Shown here: positions 7,985 to 59,989 of the stretch, piece by piece
Layout of the letters: each line of letters begins with the position of its first letter
Numbering within the stretch: the stretch's first letter is position 1
Assembly (NCBI RefSeq): GCF_017348835.2
Contig: NZ_CP071375.1
DNA length: 64,000 nt
Reading direction: 5' to 3' (one strand)
Origin: Escherichia coli
GTDB lineage: Bacteria; Pseudomonadota; Gammaproteobacteria; Enterobacterales; Enterobacteriaceae
Notes under the pieces: generated by a model
The model's input: the letters and a program-made list of their open reading frames with translations, nothing else
Told to the model about the DNA's origin: nothing
Databases searched by the model: none
Translations under genes and position numbers: made by a program

Positions 7985-9476
<1,492 letters not shown>

Positions 9477-21538: not shown

Positions 21539-22766
21539 TTATCCTTTTACGCACACCACCTGACGTAGGGTGTAGATAACTTCCACCAGATCGCTTTGTG
21601 CCGCCATCACCGCATCAATATCTTTATACGCCATCGGGATTTCGTCGATCACTTCGGCATCTTTACGGCATTCCACATGCGCGGTGGCACGAATTTGGTC
21701 TTCCACGCTGAACAGTTTTTTCGCTTTAGTTCGGCTCATTACCCGCCCGGCACCGTGGCTGCACGAACAGAACGACTCTTCATTTCCCAGTCCACGAACG
21801 ATAAAGCTTTTTGCCCCCATCGAACCGGGAATAATTCCATATTGACCAGCACGCGCAGACACCGCGCCTTTACGCGTCACGTAGATCTCTTCACCAAAGT
21901 GCTGTTCTTTTTGCACATAGTTGTGGTGACAGTTGATCTCTTCCATCGCCAGCGTTTGTGGCTGTCTGACCGTTTTCTGCGTAATGCTCTGCAACGCCGT
22001 TACCACGTTTTCCATCATCGCATCGCGGTTAAGGCTGGCGAAAAGCTGCGCCCAGGCCACGGCTCTTAGGTAATCATCAAAGTATTCCGTACCTTCCATA
22101 AAGTACGCCAGATCACGCGACGGCAACGTCTCAAGTTGGTCCTGCATCTCTATTTTGCGCCAGATCGATAAAGTAAGTCCCGATGGCATTACCAATTCCG
22201 CGTGAACCGGAGTGCAGCATAATCCACACCTGGTCCGACTCATCAAGGCAGATTTCAATAAAGTGGTTACCCGTTCCCAGCGTTCCCAGGTGTTTATAGT
22301 TGTTAGTGTTAAGGAAACGCGGATATTTTTGCGTTAACCACTGATAACCGGCTTCCAGCTCAGCCCATTTCGCATCGACGTTAACAGGCGGATTTTCCCA
22401 TGCACCTTTATCACGTTTACAACGTCCGGTAGTACGCCCGTGCGGCACCGCAGTTTCAATCGCCTGACGCAGCTCCGCCAGGTTTTCCGGCAGGTCAGCC
22501 GCCGTTAAAGCGGTACGTAGTGCGTTCATTCCACAGCCAATATCCACGCCCACCGCCGCCGGAATAATCGCCCCTTTGGTCGGGATCACGCTACCAATGG
22601 TGGAACCTTTACCCAGGTGTACATCAGGCATTACCGCAATATGTTTGAAAATAAACGGCATCTTCGCCGTATTAATAAGTTGCTGACGCGCATCGGCTTC
22701 TACCGGCACGCCTTTGGTCCACATTTTTACCGGGGCATTTTCAGTGGTCAGTAATTCGTAATTCAT
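21539..22766 (-). pseudogene. rtcB: RNA ligase RtcB, frameshifted
   Basis: Two overlapping minus-strand ORFs (22131..22766, RtcB N-terminus ending ...IDLAQ then 7 out-of-frame codons; 21539..22258, continuing in another frame from ...IEMQDQLETLPSRDLAYF to ...VVCVKG); frame switch at the T4 run at 22153-22156. Confidence 0.8.
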
Positions 22767-28417: not shown

Positions 28418-29020
28418 TTACCGTAAAGCCCACGCCATCATACCCAACGTAACAAAACTCAGGCACGTTCCCCACTCACTCCACTTCCGTATCTGGCTTC
28501 TATTTTTGCTACGCCACTGGCAATAATATCCCAACGCAAAACCAAGCTGTGCGCTTATTGGACCGATAAAATCCGTCCACGGCTGAGGCCAAAATGGCGA
28601 AAAATTCAGGGGTAGCCAGACAACAAGCAGAAAGAAATTGCGGATACTTTCCAGCAACGCAATTTTCGCTGGCGCGATGTAAAAAATGATATTCCAGAGG
28701 ATCAACCATAAATAGACCGGTGCGAATACCAACCAACAATGGAGCCTGCTTTTCAATTCAGATTGAGTTCTACGAGTAAATTGCCAACCGACACAACATA
28801 TTACACAGAAAAAAAGCGCATATTCAGCCGATAACCAAAGTTGTAATTGCAGAAGTGAAATACGCCTGATCATGAGCGAGATTGAGAACAGCATTTCCCC
28901 CAGAAAACTCAGCGTGATAATACAAGCAGCCAGTGCAACCACCGTCGGCCACACCAACAACGGTACAATAACAAAGCCGAGAAATAACGGATAAATATAA
29001 AGTCTGATTATATTCATCAT
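28418..29020 (-). CDS. Small polytopic membrane protein, function unknown
   Basis: 200 aa, hydrophobic throughout (5-6 predicted TM segments); start overlaps the stop of the upstream gene (TAATG). Confidence 0.6.
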   Translation of the reverse strand: MMNIIRLYIYPLFLGFVIVPLLVWPTVVALAACIITLSFLGEMLFSISLMIRRISLLQLQLWLSAEYALFFCVICCVGWQFTRRTQSELKSRLHCWLVFAPVYLWLILWNIIFYIAPAKIALLESIRNFFLLVVWLPLNFSPFWPQPWTDFIGPISAQLGFALGYYCQWRSKNRSQIRKWSEWGTCLSFVTLGMMAWALR

Positions 29021-30552
29021 TATTGTCCTGATGATTCGGGGGATGCTTCATACAGCGGCACATACCCCACATCCTCTACCAACTGTTGCCCCTGCGGACT
29101 TAAAAACCAGTCAACAAATTTCTGCGTTTCCGGCGTGGCATTTTCACGCGTCACCATAAATGCATCGACGATGTACGCATATTTGCCGTTGCGAATGTTT
29201 TCCGCCGTCGGTGTAATATCGTTAATCGCTAGCAATTTTATATTTTTATCAGCATTCATTTGCGTCGCGTAATAGCGGAAGGTATAGCCTATTGCGTTGT
29301 TTGTATTACGATATTCGGCAACGACTTTAATCATTCCCTCCATTACGCTTGCCACTTCGGTTTCCTGCGGCGAGATCATACGGACATTTTTCATGACCTG
29401 TGATTGCATCACCGTCTGGCTGCCAGAGTCTTCCGGGCGTTGCCAGGTCTGGATCTCCTGATCGTTACCGTCAACAGTACGCCAGTTGGTAATTGCACCA
29501 CTGAAAATGTCACGCACCTGTTGTTCAGTCAGAGAATTAACCGGATTATCCGCATTGACGATGAAAACGAATGCTTCACGGGCAAATGGCGTGTATAGCA
29601 AAGTGACGCCCGATTCCTCTGCGCGTTTTTTCTGCCCACCGGAGGGTTGCGCCACAAAAATAATATCGGCATCACCTTTAACAATCCGGTTATATGCATC
29701 GGGGGTACGAGAGTTCTCCAGATATTCCCAGATGTGGAAATCTTCCGGTATAACGCTCAACGCATAAAAGGCAGAGGCATAAATTGGGTACGCCGCCGTA
29801 GCACCATCGAGTCGCGGCCAGTTTTGCGTAAACTGAATTTGCGGTTTACCACGCAGTGGTGTCAGTTGATTATTGAGTTTATCGGGTCGCCAGGCCCAGG
29901 TATCAATATTTTCACGGACACCGACGCCGGGATTAAGCTGTTTATATAAATAAGCCTGGTAACCGGCGACAAAACCAAGCATGAGAAGGATAAACAAGAG
30001 GGAATTACGGCAACGTAACCCGGACGTGCCCGTTAAAAGATGTCTGGTCGGCCAACCGTACCCCAGCGAAAAACTGATATGCGCGCCAACGGGTATAATG
30101 ACTATCCACCAGTACTCACCACCAACTAATGAGACTAACAAAACACCCAGCCAGGGAAGCATAAGATCAGCCAACCAACCCGATCCCATCTGGCGAAATT
30201 GATAATCTGCCAGATGCAGCGCGATTATCCAGCCAATCAGGGTTAATAGTGCGGGTAAGAGAAAAAAGCATTGTCGCCAGGCGGCTATTTCTCTTTTTTC
30301 TGGTGCACTATCGCCCGCCCATACTCGCCCCGAGAAAAATAGCATTATCGCACCCAGCGCCAACATAAAAATGTTAAGCAGAAGGTAAATTGTTGGCGTG
30401 AAGAGTAAATTGCAAACTTCAAGAATGGCGGCAAGCCCGCCCCCCAGCATAGCAACAACCGCTGCCAAAAATTGCGTCAGTATGGGGAGGCCGAAAAAAG
30501 TCATTACCAGCGAGGACAAAATCCATTTTCTGTTTTGCATTATTCTTTCCAT
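29020..30552 (-). CDS. Polytopic membrane domain fused to a PstS-like (phosphate-binding, PBP type 2) periplasmic domain
   Basis: 510 aa; N-terminal ~200 aa hydrophobic; C-terminal region has PstS-like motifs LDGATAAYPIY, RPEDSGSQTVM, NAIGYTFRYYA, KFVDWFLSPQG; likely the intact form of what K-12 keeps as the yzgL remnant. Confidence 0.65.
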   Translation of the reverse strand: MERIMQNRKWILSSLVMTFFGLPILTQFLAAVVAMLGGGLAAILEVCNLLFTPTIYLLLNIFMLALGAIMLFFSGRVWAGDSAPEKREIAAWRQCFFLLPALLTLIGWIIALHLADYQFRQMGSGWLADLMLPWLGVLLVSLVGGEYWWIVIIPVGAHISFSLGYGWPTRHLLTGTSGLRCRNSLLFILLMLGFVAGYQAYLYKQLNPGVGVRENIDTWAWRPDKLNNQLTPLRGKPQIQFTQNWPRLDGATAAYPIYASAFYALSVIPEDFHIWEYLENSRTPDAYNRIVKGDADIIFVAQPSGGQKKRAEESGVTLLYTPFAREAFVFIVNADNPVNSLTEQQVRDIFSGAITNWRTVDGNDQEIQTWQRPEDSGSQTVMQSQVMKNVRMISPQETEVASVMEGMIKVVAEYRNTNNAIGYTFRYYATQMNADKNIKLLAINDITPTAENIRNGKYAYIVDAFMVTRENATPETQKFVDWFLSPQGQQLVEDVGYVPLYEASPESSGQ

Positions 30553-41603: not shown

Positions 41604-42197
41604 ATGAATGAAATCATTTCTGCAGCAGTTTTATTGATCCTGATTATGGATCCGCTCGGAAACCTACCTATTTTCATGTCCGTACTGAAACATACTGAAC
41701 CGAAAAGACGGCGGGCAATCATGGTGCGAGAGTTGCTTATTGCTCTCCTGGTGATGCTGGTGTTCCTGTTTGCGGGTGAGAAAATTCTGGCATTTCTCAG
41801 CCTGCGAGCAGAAACCGTCTCCATTTCTGGCGGCATCATTCTGTTTCTGATCGCCATTAAGATGATTTTCCCCAGCGCTTCAGGAAATAGCAGCGGGCTT
41901 CCGGCAGGTGAAGAGCCGTTTATCGTGCCGTTGGCAATTCCGTTAGTCGCCGGGCCGACTATTCTCGCCACGCTGATGTTGTTGTCTCATCAGTACCCGA
42001 ATCAGATGGGACATCTGGTGATTGCTCTGCTGCTGGCCTGGGGCGGCACCTTTGTCATTCTGCTACAGTCTTCGCTATTTTTACGTCTGCTGGGCGAGAA
42101 AGGGGTGAACGCACTTGAACGCCTGATGGGATTGATTCTGGTGATGATGGCAACCCAGATGTTCCTCGACGGCATTCGAATGTGGATGAAGGGGTAA
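41604..42197 (+). CDS. yhgN: MarC-family inner membrane protein YhgN
   Basis: 197-aa polytopic membrane protein at the expected position. Confidence 0.85.
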   Translation: MNEIISAAVLLILIMDPLGNLPIFMSVLKHTEPKRRRAIMVRELLIALLVMLVFLFAGEKILAFLSLRAETVSISGGIILFLIAIKMIFPSASGNSSGLPAGEEPFIVPLAIPLVAGPTILATLMLLSHQYPNQMGHLVIALLLAWGGTFVILLQSSLFLRLLGEKGVNALERLMGLILVMMATQMFLDGIRMWMKG

Positions 42198-42202
42198 GGT
42201 TC

Positions 42203-42240
42203 AAACAGGTGCTGCACACAACCAGACGCGGCACCTGTTT
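42203..42240. terminator. Hairpin between convergent yhgN and the DprA-like gene
   Basis: 10-bp arms aaacaggtgc / gcacctgttt with an 18-nt loop, then ttatt. Confidence 0.5.
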
Positions 42241-42242
42241 TA

Positions 42243-43445
42243 TTACCTGAACTGATAATGACCTTCGCCCAATCGGATAACCCTTCCCTCTTCTTCTGCG
42301 CGGTTCAGCCACACACTAATTTGTTCGATGGTTAAACCAGTACAAGACGCCAGCCTTTCAATACTTATCGATTCCTTTGCAAGGATCGCCAGTTCCGCCA
42401 CAAAGAGTTGATAAAAATCGACAGGCGTATACGCGGGCATTACTGCGTAATTTGCGTCATCTTCATGCAGCGAAAACAGTTCTGGTTGAGCGTTACGGAG
42501 TGCTCTGTCATACATCAGCCCAGGAACGTCTGGCAGTCTGATCGTCACATTCTCAGCCTGTTCAGCACTCCATGACGCCCCATTTTCTACTAATCGTGAA
42601 TTGGCTGATTGCATATCCTGATTTGGTTTAACCTGCACAGGCAGCCACTGATGTTTTAATGCCTCCATCGCCCCGGTTATCGTTCCACCGGTCATTCCCG
42701 CACGTACAACCATTGCGCTTTCAGCAAGGCAATAAATATATTTATTTCGCGCCATCGCATTGCCGACGGTGAAACGTACCTCTGGGTAAAACGGCGAAAT
42801 CAACACCAGGTTGCCTGCTATAAGCCCTTCACGCCATTTCACTAACGTACTCGTTTTTAACAAGCTATCAGCTAATACGCCAACGGCAGTTCCCCCGGCC
42901 TCCAGTGCCGACGCCATTGCACATTCATCAATACCTCGCGCACCACCAGAGATAACGCAAATCCCCTGTTGGGCCAGTTTCGCGGCCAGTTGTTGGGTAT
43001 AGCGCAAATCGTCAGTCGGAGCATCTCGCGAGCCAACAATCGCCATACCTTCCGCTTGCAGTAATGCTTTATTCCCGCAGCCAAATAAAACGGGAGGTGC
43101 ATCCGTTCGCAATCGGTTTTTCAAGCGAACGGGATAATCGGCATCTCCGCGGGTTAAGATCCATAAACCGGCGCGTTGCCACTTATCTACCGCCAACGCC
43201 AGACTATGACCGCGCGCCAGCAAGCCAAGAATACGCTCCTGAGAAATACGCGGATCGCTCCAGCCTGTAAGTTTATCTTGCGGTTGCGGCACCAGAAGCT
43301 CGGCGGGACTGATACGTTGGTGCTTCAGCCATAATGCAAACTTCCCCCATTCACTATTACTAAGAGGTTTATACTCACTCGCCGCCGCGCGAGAAAAATC
43401 GCTGGTTAGCAGGAGAGTTGCTTGTGCATTGGCTGAAAGATTCAT
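42243..43445 (-). CDS. DprA/Smf-like (Rossmann/SLOG) protein; candidate antitoxin/partner of the upstream helicase
   Basis: Motif GMAIVGSRDAPTDDLRYTQQLAAKLAQQGICVISGGARGIDECAMASALEAGGTAVGVLADSL is typical of the DprA core; start set at Met overlapping the helicase stop (TGATG); an alternative upstream Met at 43538 would give 431 aa. Confidence 0.75.
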   Translation of the reverse strand: MNLSANAQATLLLTSDFSRAAASEYKPLSNSEWGKFALWLKHQRISPAELLVPQPQDKLTGWSDPRISQERILGLLARGHSLALAVDKWQRAGLWILTRGDADYPVRLKNRLRTDAPPVLFGCGNKALLQAEGMAIVGSRDAPTDDLRYTQQLAAKLAQQGICVISGGARGIDECAMASALEAGGTAVGVLADSLLKTSTLVKWREGLIAGNLVLISPFYPEVRFTVGNAMARNKYIYCLAESAMVVRAGMTGGTITGAMEALKHQWLPVQVKPNQDMQSANSRLVENGASWSAEQAENVTIRLPDVPGLMYDRALRNAQPELFSLHEDDANYAVMPAYTPVDFYQLFVAELAILAKESISIERLASCTGLTIEQISVWLNRAEEEGRVIRLGEGHYQFR

Positions 43446-45541
43446 CAATTTTTTACCGAGGTAGAAGCAAGGGCAAGAGGATAAACCGTCGGGCAACCTG
43501 CCTGGCCTAACAGTGCTGTCAGAACTGTCAGCGTCCATGCAGAATCCACGATATCGTCAACCAGCAACGCCGGACCAGGCATCAAAGGAGGGGTAATCAC
43601 AAACGCCCCGTCGAGATTTTGACACTGGTGGAAACGGTTTTGCTGCATTTTCTGCGGTGGATTGTCCACGACTTTTTCAATGGCATCAATAAAAGGTAAG
43701 CCAAGTTTCGCCGCCAGTCGCCGGGCAAAATCAGGAACCAGGTCGAGGTGCTTTAATGAAGGAACGCAGCATACCCAGGTTGGTTCAGGATGCGGATTCC
43801 AGCGTTGGCGAACCATTTCCGCACATGCCTCCACCAGTTCATCACTGAATCGCCCCGTTTTTTTCTCCTGTGCTACCTGCTTTCCCCACCCGGAATCTCC
43901 CCAACGAGAAAGGATTCGCCCCGTAGATCCTTGTAAACTCGCAGGCAAGTTCCCTTTAAATCCGTATTGCGTAAAAGCCCCAGCTGCCACCTGTTTATTG
44001 AGATTTAATGGCAGGTCAGCGTGTTTAATAAATAAGTTTGCCGCATGGAGTAAGCCGCTATCAATGTCGGGCGACAACAACGGATGCTGAAGACAACTGC
44101 TACATTTACCACAATGTTCGGCACCTGGCTCATCGAGTGCGCGGCGCAGAAATTGCATTTTGCACTCCTTGGTCGTGATATAGCTTTCAACGTCTGCCAG
44201 CTCACTTTTTCTCTGATTCATCAAATGGTTAATTCGTTCATGGTCAGGAGAAAAACTGACAATTGTTCTGCGCCATAATTTCTCGGTATACACCACAGGC
44301 GATGGATTTTCAGCTACCAATAATTTCAGTGCTTTTTCTATTTGCCCGTAACGGAGATTCGTCCGTTGTTCAATGCCTCGTAAGGTAAGACCGTCATTCA
44401 CGCTAAGTACGTTGAGTATTTCATGAATTTGCGCCTCCGCAGGAAAGGCGCTTTCACGGAAGAATTTATGAATAGCACGGTCTTCACTGCCGCAAAGCAG
44501 TATGCCAACAGCAGAATCGATACCGCGACCGGCACGCCCCACCTGTTGGTAGTAACCAACTATCGAACCTGGCATCTGGTAATGAATAACAAACCCCAAA
44601 TCCGGTTTGTCAAAGCCCATTCCCAGCGCCGTTGTCGCAACCAGCACTTTAATTTTATTTGCCAGCAACGCCTGCTCCAGATATTCCCTGGCAGTATTAG
44701 AATCTTCCGCGCCTTCACAAGTCACGCCGCTGTAGTAAGCAAATGCACTGATACCATTTTTCCTTAACCACTCGGCGACAAGTTCGGCATCGCGAGTAGT
44801 CAGGGTATAAACAATTCCCGATTTGGAAAACTGAGGGATAACTGTTGCTAACCATGCCAGACGGGATGACTGTTCACCTAAGACTAAGGCATCAAGCGCC
44901 AAACTTTCGCGAGCCAGCGTTCCACGCTGAATCACAATGTCACCCAATTGCTGACGGATATCCTCAACGACACGGTTATTCGCTGTCGCGGTTGTACCCA
45001 GAACAGGGGTATTCGCAGGTAGTTGGCGCAAAATATCTAATATACGTCGGTAATCCGGGCGAAAATCGTGGCCCCAATCAGAGATGCAGTGCGCCTCGTC
45101 GACCACAAGCAAGCCAATACGATCGGCTATAGGATATAAAACCGTTTCGATAAAGTCCTGGTTTGCCAAACGTTCCGGGGAAACCAGCAAGCAATCGACC
45201 TCACCTTGCAGCAACTTATCGCTAATGCGCTGCCATTCTTCTCTGTTTGTAGAATTCAACGTTTCAGCCGTAATACCTAACCGTTCAGCGGCGGCAACCT
45301 GGTTACGCATCAGGGCAAGCAAAGGAGAGATGATAATTGTCGGGCCAGCGCCGCGATCGCGGAAGATTTTACTGGCGATGAAGTACACAGCACTTTTCCC
45401 CCAGCCAGTGCGTTGGACAACCAGCAGTTTTCGCCGTTGGTTCACCACCGCGTCTATGGCTTCCCATTGCCCTTCCCTGAAAGTAGCGGTGGTATTTCCT
45501 AACATCCGCTGTAAAAGCAATTCAGCTGCGTGCTTTTCCAT
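43445..45541 (-). CDS. RecQ-like SF2 DNA helicase fused to a C-terminal ComF/PRTase-like domain; candidate toxin/effector
   Basis: 698 aa; Walker A TGWGKSAV, DEAH box VVDEAHCISDWGHDFRPDY, motif VI QQVGRAGR, Cys cluster CGKCSSC, C-terminal PRTase motif ALLVDDIVDSAWTL; strong SD aggag upstream of ATG. Confidence 0.8.
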   Translation of the reverse strand: MEKHAAELLLQRMLGNTTATFREGQWEAIDAVVNQRRKLLVVQRTGWGKSAVYFIASKIFRDRGAGPTIIISPLLALMRNQVAAAERLGITAETLNSTNREEWQRISDKLLQGEVDCLLVSPERLANQDFIETVLYPIADRIGLLVVDEAHCISDWGHDFRPDYRRILDILRQLPANTPVLGTTATANNRVVEDIRQQLGDIVIQRGTLARESLALDALVLGEQSSRLAWLATVIPQFSKSGIVYTLTTRDAELVAEWLRKNGISAFAYYSGVTCEGAEDSNTAREYLEQALLANKIKVLVATTALGMGFDKPDLGFVIHYQMPGSIVGYYQQVGRAGRGIDSAVGILLCGSEDRAIHKFFRESAFPAEAQIHEILNVLSVNDGLTLRGIEQRTNLRYGQIEKALKLLVAENPSPVVYTEKLWRRTIVSFSPDHERINHLMNQRKSELADVESYITTKECKMQFLRRALDEPGAEHCGKCSSCLQHPLLSPDIDSGLLHAANLFIKHADLPLNLNKQVAAGAFTQYGFKGNLPASLQGSTGRILSRWGDSGWGKQVAQEKKTGRFSDELVEACAEMVRQRWNPHPEPTWVCCVPSLKHLDLVPDFARRLAAKLGLPFIDAIEKVVDNPPQKMQQNRFHQCQNLDGAFVITPPLMPGPALLVDDIVDSAWTLTVLTALLGQAGCPTVYPLALASTSVKN

Positions 45542-45643
45542 CTTTATCTCCTGCGATCTTTAGGCAGTGATTAGAACGGATTATTTGCAGGTAAATTTGC
45601 GAGAGAGATCAAAAAGATGAAGAGAGGAGAAAAGAGAAATGAA

Positions 45644-45667
45644 TTACTGCGAGCAAGCTCGCAGTAA
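45644..45667 (-). terminator. Hairpin downstream of gntU
   Basis: ttactgcgagc-aa-gctcgcagtaa palindrome followed on the minus strand by a T-rich tract. Confidence 0.5.
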
Positions 45668-45680
45668 TTTGTCGCAGTAA

Positions 45681-47021
45681 TTAACTCAACAGCTGGAACG
45701 CAATCATCCCAACGATGGCACCAACAGTGCCGAGGATGGTTTCCATCATGGTCCAGGTTTTCAGCGTTTCGGCTTCGGTCGCGCCGGTAAATTTACCGAA
45801 CAACCAGAAACCGGCGTCGTTAACGTGGCTGACAACAATCGAACCACCGGCGATACAAATCGACAGCGCCGCCATTTGCGCACCGGAATAGTTCAGTTGT
45901 TCAATGACCGGCATCACCAGCCCCACCGCCGTTAAACAGGCAACGGTGGCAGACCCCTGAATGATGCGCACTGCAGCTGCCAGCACGAAGCAGGTGATAG
46001 CAATCGGCAGGCCCATGCCGGTTAACGCTTCGCCCAGTGCCGGACCTACGCCAGAGTCAACCAGCACCTGTTTGAACACGCCGCCCGCACCAATCACCAG
46101 CAGAATGATCCCCGCCGGTTGCAGCGCGTGACCGCAAATCTCCATCACTTTGTCTTTTGGCATGCCCTGACGCATTGCCAGACCGTAAATCGCCACCAGA
46201 CAAGCAACCAGAATCGCGGTAAACGGATGACCAATAAACTCGAACCATTCGTAAGCGGTAGAGCCTTCCGGCACAAAACGCGCGGCAATGGTTTTCAGCC
46301 CCACCAGCACCAGCGGCAGCAGGATCAGCGACAGGCTGAATCCGAAGGACGGCATTTTGCCTTCGCCGAGATGCGGCTCGCTGATGTCGTCAGGAATATG
46401 CAGCTCAACGTAACGGCTGATGAAGTTACCCCACAGCGGCCCGGCAATAATCATTCCCGGAATTGCCGCACACAGGCCAATCAGGATCATCCAGCCAAAA
46501 TCGGCGTTCATCTGCGATGCCAGCAGCATTGGCGCTGGCCCTGGCACCAGGAACGCCGCCGCTGCCGCCACGCCTGCGAATAATGGGATTACCAGCTTCA
46601 CCAGGTTCGTACCGGTGTGGCGCGCCATTGAAAAAGCAACGCTAATCAGCAGAACAATCGCCACTTCAAAGAACAGCGGTAGCGCACAGACCAGCCCCGC
46701 AAGGCCGATGGCATAATGCGCGCGGCTGTGACCGAAGGATTTGAGCATTTTGACGGCAATCTGATCGACTGCGCCGGTTTCATGTAAGATCTTGCCAAAC
46801 ATAGCTCCCAGGGCGACAACCACCGCCAGGAAGCCGAGGGTGCCTCCCATCCCTTTTTCCATCGTCGCTGCGATTTTATCGAGCGGCATACCGGAAAAAA
46901 GGCCAGCCCCCATGGACACCACCATCAAAGCCAGGAAAGCGTGCATACGCGCCTTCATGACTAAAAACAGCAGCAGTAAAACAGACCCTACTGCTGTTAA
47001 AACAAGCGTTAATGTAGTCAC
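45681..47021 (-). CDS. gntU: Low-affinity gluconate transporter
   Basis: 446 aa GntP-family permease, paralogous to gntT. Confidence 0.92.
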   Translation of the reverse strand: MTTLTLVLTAVGSVLLLLFLVMKARMHAFLALMVVSMGAGLFSGMPLDKIAATMEKGMGGTLGFLAVVVALGAMFGKILHETGAVDQIAVKMLKSFGHSRAHYAIGLAGLVCALPLFFEVAIVLLISVAFSMARHTGTNLVKLVIPLFAGVAAAAAFLVPGPAPMLLASQMNADFGWMILIGLCAAIPGMIIAGPLWGNFISRYVELHIPDDISEPHLGEGKMPSFGFSLSLILLPLVLVGLKTIAARFVPEGSTAYEWFEFIGHPFTAILVACLVAIYGLAMRQGMPKDKVMEICGHALQPAGIILLVIGAGGVFKQVLVDSGVGPALGEALTGMGLPIAITCFVLAAAVRIIQGSATVACLTAVGLVMPVIEQLNYSGAQMAALSICIAGGSIVVSHVNDAGFWLFGKFTGATEAETLKTWTMMETILGTVGAIVGMIAFQLLS

Positions 47022-59242: not shown

Positions 59243-59989
59243 TCATTGCACCACACTCTGCTTCAACCATTCATTGGCGGTCTTAATCCATTCCCGGTGG
59301 TGTTTTCTATAATGAGGTCTTGAGCGTTTAGCCGTATCAACTACAGCAACATACTGCTCGTTGGCTTCACGTAACCGACTCATTTTCGCCAACATTTCCG
59401 CATAGTAAATACGCGCCTGCGGGCCGGGGTAATAAGAAATCAATACTTCAAACTCGCTTTCCGCATCAGCGTATTTTTCTTGTGCGGCTAACGTTCTGGC
59501 AAATAACAAATGCCCGTCTGCCGACTGAAAATCAGGGTTATAACGCATCACATCTTCCAGCGTCTGCTGACAGGCGGCGAACTCCTGAATAGCAAACTGT
59601 GCCTGCGCCAGGCTTAGCATCATTGCCGCTTCATGGGCGAATATCCCGCTTAACGCCTGCTGATAATGGGGAACAGCTTCGTGATAACGCCCCAGGCGCG
59701 CCAGTTCATTAGCCAACGCATAATGGTTTTGATTCGTCTCGGCAATCGCCAGTTCTTCGGTTAATTTGCGCAGGTGGCGCTCAGGGTTGAGTTTGTCCTG
59801 CAGGCGCATCAGCAAAGTATGCCCGTGACGGTCAGCGCCCGTTTCAGGCAGCATCACTATGACGAAATACGCCACGCAGCCAATCACCGGAAAACAGAAA
59901 ATGATAAAAATCCAGTACCGCTCTTGTCCGGTACGGTAAGCGTGAATACAGCAAAGCAGTTCAAGCATGACAACAACGGCATAATGCAT
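59243..59989 (-). CDS. Membrane protein with PLDc_N-like N-terminal hairpin and TPR-like repeats, function unknown
   Basis: 248 aa; N-terminus ...RYWIFIIFCFPVIGCVAYFVIVM...; helical repeat region (ALANELARLGRYHEAVPHYQQAL...); not expected between ugpB and livF from my recollection of K-12. Confidence 0.55.
   Translation of the reverse strand: MHYAVVVMLELLCCIHAYRTGQERYWIFIIFCFPVIGCVAYFVIVMLPETGADRHGHTLLMRLQDKLNPERHLRKLTEELAIAETNQNHYALANELARLGRYHEAVPHYQQALSGIFAHEAAMMLSLAQAQFAIQEFAACQQTLEDVMRYNPDFQSADGHLLFARTLAAQEKYADAESEFEVLISYYPGPQARIYYAEMLAKMSRLREANEQYVAVVDTAKRSRPHYRKHHREWIKTANEWLKQSVVQ

Follow-up and report, generated by a model that had tools for sequence, protein, structure and literature searches.

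The DNA analysed here (the window, meaning the whole stretch) comprises 64,000 nucleotides of contig NZ_CP071375.1 of Escherichia coli. Its gene order (bioH-gntX-nfuA-gntT ... glgBXCAP-asd-yhgN ... gntUKR-yhhW-yhhX-ggt-ugp-liv) is that of the E. coli chromosome. In the interval from the yhgN stop (42197) to the gntU stop (45681) we identified two co-oriented open reading frames (ORFs) on the minus strand, which we assign to rqlH and rqlI, also called psyrT and psyrA. The name PsyrTA is said to go back to Sberro in 2013 and Millman in 2022. The features of the locus, together with one comparator gene from elsewhere in the window, are as follows.

42198-45680, no strand assigned: rqlHI island, an accessory segment of 3483 bp (3.5 kb) in place of the 56-bp yhgN-gntU spacer of K-12 MG1655
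43445-45541, minus strand: rqlH (psyrT), encoding a 698-amino-acid (aa) RecQ-like helicase with a ComF-like phosphoribosyltransferase (PRTase) C-terminal domain, the assigned toxin; PADLOC PsyrT, NCBIfam recQ_fam
44471-45487, minus strand: superfamily 2 (SF2) helicase core of RqlH (about residues 19-357), with Walker A GWGKS (K49) and DEAH (D148)
44090-44215, minus strand: RecQ-type tetracysteine zinc-binding module of RqlH (C460, C477, C480, C483); Pfam RecQ_Zn_bind
43448-44071, minus strand: ComF-like PRTase domain of RqlH (residues 491-698), from profile and structure comparison
43532-43558, minus strand: motif DDIVDSAWT (residues 662-670) of the loop that binds 5-phosphoribosyl 1-pyrophosphate (PRPP), with the DD pair D662, D663 intact
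42243-43445, minus strand: rqlI (psyrA), encoding a 400-aa DprA-like protein, the assigned antitoxin, translationally coupled to rqlH via a TGATG overlap
42570-43181, minus strand: DprA/SLOG Rossmann domain of RqlI; Pfam DNA_processg_A, SLOG
45642-45669, minus strand: terminator-like hairpin (12-bp stem and T-rich tail) just 3' of gntU and upstream of rqlH, within the insert
8793-9476, plus strand: gntX, this genome's canonical member of the ComF family, taken as comparator; NCBIfam GntX, comF

RqlH matches the PADLOC model PsyrT (PDLC03928) with an E value of 0 and 1063.1 bits, residues 3-697 of the protein aligning to positions 5-687 of the 689 in the model. The corresponding match of RqlI to PsyrA (PDLC03927) has an E value of 3.8e-202 and 669.7 bits, and covers model positions 1-397 of 398. 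PsyrTA and RqlHI are one and the same system (bioRxiv 10.1101/2022.05.11.491447). The catalytic residues of RqlH are intact (Walker A K49, DEAH D148 and PRPP-loop D662/D663), and K49, D148 and D663 lie at the same positions as residues mutated in RqlH of E. coli F11 (PMC4670107). The gene order is typical for the family, with rqlH upstream of, and overlapping, rqlI (an arrangement described in PMC4670107). The architecture matches the published definition of RqlH, i.e., a RecQ-like ATPase, a tetracysteine zinc module and a PRTase C-terminal domain, and no HRDC domain (PMC3378886). We conclude that the two genes are very probably the E. coli rqlH-rqlI (PsyrTA) toxin-antitoxin operon, which is catalogued as an anti-phage system, carried on an accessory insert of 3.5 kb that separates yhgN from gntU. 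Earlier publications already cover the locus, the arrangement of its domains, the analogy to ComF/DprA and the behaviour as toxin and antitoxin, and defence annotators detect the locus.

A Shine-Dalgarno sequence (AGGAG) was identified upstream of the rqlH ATG. The stop codon of rqlH overlaps the start codon of rqlI by one base (TGATG at 43447-43443). The most likely start of rqlI is this ATG at 43445, giving a 400-aa product, because the PsyrA profile begins at M32 (the first model position pairs with residue 32 in the long ORF 42243-43538) and because published RqlI is 400 aa in length. The RefSeq annotation of PE164, a pig isolate that differs from the window by 2 mismatches in 42 kb (position 22000 onward), gives rqlI as the 431-aa ORF 42243-43538, which overlaps rqlH by 94 nt.

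RqlI carries the name 'DNA-processing protein DprA' in RefSeq. The DprA domain PF02481 (DNA_processg_A) was identified with an E value of 5.6e-51 over residues 120-323 of the long ORF, in agreement with the sequence-only reading, which had pointed to a DprA-like neighbour, and SLOG cluster4 matches with an E value of 5e-11. The protein scores below the curated DprA cutoffs (101.7 bits vs 191.15 for TIGR00732, and 79.6 bits vs 495 for PRK10736). By these scores, RqlI is a DprA-family protein and not a DprA equivalog.

RqlH is named 'RecQ family ATP-dependent DNA helicase' in RefSeq, and its residues 23-339 comprise the Pfam domains DEAD (E 4.9e-25) and Helicase_C (E 9.5e-13). The NCBIfam family recQ_fam (TIGR00614) matches residues 19-357 with 253.8 bits, above the cutoff of 219.8, and the RecQ equivalog (TIGR01389) reaches 298 bits, below its cutoff of 640.2. 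Residues 443-484 show a weak match to Pfam RecQ_Zn_bind (E 0.0031); a profile of the C-terminal domain, described below, likewise reaches into the zinc region of RecQ proteins of known structure (4q47, E 0.005). A homologous zinc module has been described in Mycobacterium smegmatis RqlH (PMC3378886). Elsewhere the helicase has been termed 'a distinct SFII helicase' (PMC5512222). We did not identify a Pfam match to HRDC or RQC anywhere in RqlH. Identification of the C-terminus as a RecQ HRDC or RQC domain was rejected, given the lack of such Pfam matches and a fold that is that of a PRTase, as the sequence-only reading had anticipated. Judged from family scores, the best of which are to RecQ families (ComFA orthology was assessed in this way and not by direct alignment to a ComFA sequence), the RqlH helicase is a member of the RecQ family and not a ComFA homologue.

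The C-terminus of RqlH had been noted for a PRTase-type likeness to GntX, and this likeness holds. BLASTP of RqlH residues 498-698 against GntX gives an E value of 1e-5 with 26% identity over 76 aa, in a match that spans the PRPP loop (LLVDDIVDSAWT vs VIVDDVVTTGST). A profile built from 66 diverse homologues of the C-terminal domain aligns to GntX by hhalign with a probability of 94% (E 1.2e-7), and GntX in turn matches the PsyrT hidden Markov model (HMM) at positions 607-684, i.e., at the C-terminal end of the model, with an E value of 4e-9. Thus, by sequence comparison, the C-terminus of RqlH is homologous to GntX, beyond chance. The fold was approached through solved structures. Using the single C-domain sequence, phmmer against PDB sequences returned nothing meaningful (one match, E 0.71), so the profile from 66 homologues was needed; with this profile, PRPP synthetases, HGPRT and PurF of known structure were matched at their PRPP loops (E values down to 5e-7). 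Pfam Pribosyltran matches full-length RqlH only weakly (E 0.018), which is insufficient alone to settle the fold. Structure comparison confirmed a fold of the ComF type, specifically ComF-like, and ComF is a nearer structural match to the domain than is ShosT, the PRTase toxin of the ShosTA system. The C-terminal domain is thus confirmed as a PRTase fold of ComF type; its extent had been put at about 100 aa, and it in fact occupies about 200 aa (roughly residues 491-698).

Within the PRPP loop of RqlH the DD pair is kept, and the 5'-phosphate-binding TTGxT of the canonical motif (DD-x-x-T-T-G-x-T) is replaced by DSAWT. Among the 66 homologues, the domain positions D172, D173, D176, S177, W179 and T180 are invariant or nearly so, and the consensus of the family loop is DSRWT (D-S-R/A-W-T), with a nearly invariant tryptophan. 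The D-S-R/A-W-T loop of the RqlH clade may reflect a non-standard ligand. The gntX product represents the canonical form of the family, with 432.6 bits for the NCBIfam GntX equivalog (cutoff 304), 272 bits for comF (cutoff 233.55) and eight N-terminal cysteines in CxxC pairs (C8/11, C23/26, C37/40 and C51/54). For RqlH, comF (TIGR00201, cutoff 233.55 bits) is not among the 25 best NCBIfam matches. The cysteines in its residues 491-698 are scattered (573, 591, 592, 640 and 683) and form no CxxC pairs; the N-terminal ComF zinc finger is absent, and the RecQ zinc module (C460-C483) sits upstream of the PRTase domain.

The insert is sharply delimited. In local pairwise alignments, which were used in place of an uninformative three-way MAFFT alignment, homology to MG1655 breaks off precisely at the stop codon of yhgN (42197) and sets in again precisely at that of gntU (45681). 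The GC content of 42198-45680 is 49.5%, compared with about 53% in the flanks. Genes of rqlHI were identified at >=95% nucleotide identity (at least 95%) in 1650 of the 5426 complete E. coli genomes (~30%), and in 1641 of the 5426 the flanks match too, i.e., the site is the same. Carriers include O157:H7, O55:H7 and ST131, and the alleles share about 96-100% nucleotide identity among themselves. A mobile-element origin was considered; the junctions coincide with the yhgN and gntU stop codons, the surrounding annotated genes are chromosomal, and so are all copies. The flanking genes are asd, yhgN and gntUKR, with no competence genes beside the locus. The hairpin at 45642-45669 belongs to the inserted segment and the K-12 sequence differs at this site; therefore, the insert brought its own gntU terminator. 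A promoter scan of 42100-45800, including the region upstream of rqlH, found no match to the sigma-70 consensus.

Two variants of the locus were observed among the genomes. In O157:H7 genomes (hits H18-H21) rqlHI gives a two-piece alignment, with a span about 28 bp longer than in the window. In NZ_OZ501598.1 (hit H40) a single place matches no more than 54% of the locus, and PGAP annotates a 'ComF family protein' there; this appears to be a split-off RqlH C-terminus.

The behaviour of the operon is known from published work on orthologues. In the absence of RqlI, E. coli RqlH causes SOS induction, filamentation, mutagenesis and growth inhibition, and this toxicity is abolished by deletion of residues 509-690 or by D663A in the PRPP pocket (PMC4670107). 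The PRTase domain alone is non-toxic, the rest of RqlH being needed as well. RqlI co-immunoprecipitates with full-length RqlH and not with RqlH 1-509, and it neutralises RqlH via the PRTase domain. The two genes are co-transcribed, as determined by reverse transcription PCR, and a delta-rqlI mutant is attenuated in mice (gut colonisation), whereas delta-rqlHI has no defect (all PMC4670107). From the toxicity of RqlH, its neutralisation by RqlI and the mouse phenotypes, toxin-antitoxin behaviour therefore follows for the E. coli F11 orthologue. M. smegmatis RqlH acts as a DNA-dependent ATPase and a 3'-5' helicase, for which the ComF-like C-terminal domain is dispensable for unwinding (PMC3378886). 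PsyrTA (alias RqlHI) was included among phage-resistance systems in 2022; delta-psyrA was not transformable, and phage protection was reported for a PsyrTA homologue (bioRxiv 10.1101/2022.05.11.491447).

The sequence-only reading had seen in the locus a repurposed or fused competence module, with the helicase in the role of ComFA, the PRTase in that of ComFC and the neighbour in that of DprA, taking up or processing incoming DNA in natural transformation. The DprA-family domain of RqlI fits such a scheme, and the same analogy was drawn in PMC4670107 and PMC5512222. Its functional form is nonetheless highly improbable. The helicase is of the RecQ family, with a RecQ zinc module, and is not ComFA; RqlI falls under the DprA equivalog cutoff; and the C-terminal domain has neither the ComF zinc finger nor TTGxT in its PRPP loop. 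The window already contains a canonical gntX, the flanks hold asd, yhgN and gntUKR and not competence genes, and the locus is accessory, with only about 30% of the E. coli genomes carrying it. Transformation was looked for in extraintestinal pathogenic E. coli (ExPEC) by those who studied the E. coli pair, and none was detected; the phenotype that they describe is toxin-antitoxin-like (PMC4670107). What stands of the proposed triad is a ComF-like domain with a DprA-family neighbour. Since an interaction between ComFC and DprA has been reported (PMC9005727), an evolutionary link of RqlHI to the ComFC-DprA partnership is plausible, and the competence likeness is partly supported, as evolutionary analogy and not as function. 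The likeness has a history in print: the ComF-like C-terminal domain was described in 2012 (PMC3378886), the analogy to the ComF operon and DprA of competence in 2015 (PMC4670107), and an explicit comparison, setting ComFA and ComFC beside the DprA-coupled fusion of helicase and PRTase, in 2017 (PMC5512222).

Several points weigh against assigning the pair to toxin-antitoxin defence. With native E. coli PsyrTA from NILS69, in its own host or in K-12, protection against the phages tested was not detectable, and expression of the system led to a growth defect (bioRxiv 10.1101/2024.12.20.629700); therefore, a defence role of this E. coli allele is putative. Many Gram-positive bacteria have RqlH and no RqlI, an unexpected distribution if RqlH is an obligate toxin. 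The enzymatic PRTase activity of RqlH is putative. Finally, RqlI binds its toxin and ShosA, the antitoxin of ShosTA, does not, so the trigger model of ShosTA may not transfer.

A rival reading is a role in genome maintenance or DNA modification, in which the PRTase would alter a nucleotide in chromosomal DNA exposed by the helicase, RqlI would resolve the product, and toxicity would be a by-product of imbalance between the two. This is the model of Russell and Mulvey 2015 (PMC4670107, Fig 10). The helicase-dead variants K49A and D148A are still harmful and are not rescued by RqlI, suggesting that the helicase takes part in resolution, and besides the Gram-positive bacteria with RqlH alone there is M. 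smegmatis, which uses RqlH where RecQ is absent. However, delta-rqlHI shows no defect in colonisation of the mouse gut (PMC4670107), the locus is accessory and patchy, the family was found by its association with defence islands and is listed as a defence system, and no modified nucleotide has been identified. We consider a maintenance role unlikely, and retain the toxin-antitoxin assignment.

If RqlHI is a toxin-antitoxin defence operon, a mechanism may be proposed in which RqlH acts as a RecQ-like 3'-5' helicase joined to a ComF-like PRTase, and RqlI as a DprA-family antitoxin that binds the PRTase domain. By analogy with ShosTA, phage infection would remove or divert RqlI, via host shut-off or accumulating phage single-stranded DNA (ssDNA). 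The PRTase activity of RqlH might then be released, and the resulting damage to DNA replication and integrity would abort the infection. ShosTA combines a PRTase toxin with a DprA-like antitoxin, and its toxicity requires PRPP binding by the PRTase (PMC11961720, PMC12961424). ShosA binds ssDNA and RecA; as triggers, phage ssDNA and the shut-off of the host by T7 Gp0.7 have been proposed (PMC11961720, PMC12961424).

A more specific and rather doubtful extension would have RqlH phosphoribosylating a base, or binding a nucleotide, on ssDNA exposed by its own motor, with RqlI as a DprA-derived sensor of phage ssDNA, making the operon a defence module that arose from the ComFC-DprA partnership. This suggestion is made because RqlH's PRTase domain has its nearest structural match in ComFC, an ssDNA-binding protein. 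If true, it would represent a new, DNA-directed PRTase chemistry, in a locus that would still be a known system.

Elsewhere in the window, an accessory two-gene pair on the minus strand (28418-30543) lies between glpD and glgP. Its products are a hypothetical protein of 200 aa and a protein of 507 aa whose C-terminal half is similar to substrate-binding proteins of the PstS family (128.7 bits, under the cutoff of 206.6). Neither protein of the pair has a PADLOC match. Between ugpB and livF is a further accessory gene, for a 248-aa tetratricopeptide-repeat (TPR) protein (59243-59989, minus strand), which shows weak TPR-type matches only and has no PADLOC match. The gene rtcB (21539-22766, minus strand) is split into the overlapping ORFs 22131-22766 and 21539-22258, in different frames; in PE164, the near-identical strain, the gene is correspondingly flagged as a 'frameshifted' pseudogene.

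Compared with known systems, the locus is closest to the RqlH-RqlI pair of E. coli F11, an extraintestinal pathogenic strain (Russell & Mulvey 2015, PMC4670107), with which it shares species, operon, protein lengths (698/400 aa) and the positions of functional residues. The difference is one of allelic variation only, as judged from lengths, residues and profiles. M. smegmatis RqlH (Ordonez, Unciuleac & Shuman 2012, PMC3378886) has the same RecQ-like ATPase, linker, tetracysteine zinc module and ComF-like PRTase, also without HRDC, and is reported to be 41% identical to E. coli RqlH; it differs in having no RqlI partner and in belonging to an organism without classical RecQ. E. coli RecQ has the SF2 core and the zinc-binding module in common with RqlH, consistent with the recQ_fam score above cutoff, whereas RqlH (298 vs 640 bits on the equivalog) is without HRDC and RQC and has an extra linker and the PRTase domain. 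Unlike ComFC and GntX, the RqlH C-terminal domain is without the ComF zinc finger and has DSAWT in place of TTGST in its loop; the PRPP loop of ComFC is DDIITTGTTL (PMC9005727). Relative to ComFA-ComFC-DprA, the PRTase of RqlH is fused to a RecQ-type helicase and not partnered with ComFA, and the function of RqlHI is in toxin-antitoxin activity or defence, with no transformation role found (PMC4670107). In ShosTA (alias DprA-PPRT) the PRTase of ShosT is fused to a pyrophosphatase domain, whereas that of RqlH is fused to a helicase; the antitoxins differ too, RqlI co-precipitating with RqlH and ShosA acting via RecA and ssDNA with no binding to ShosT.

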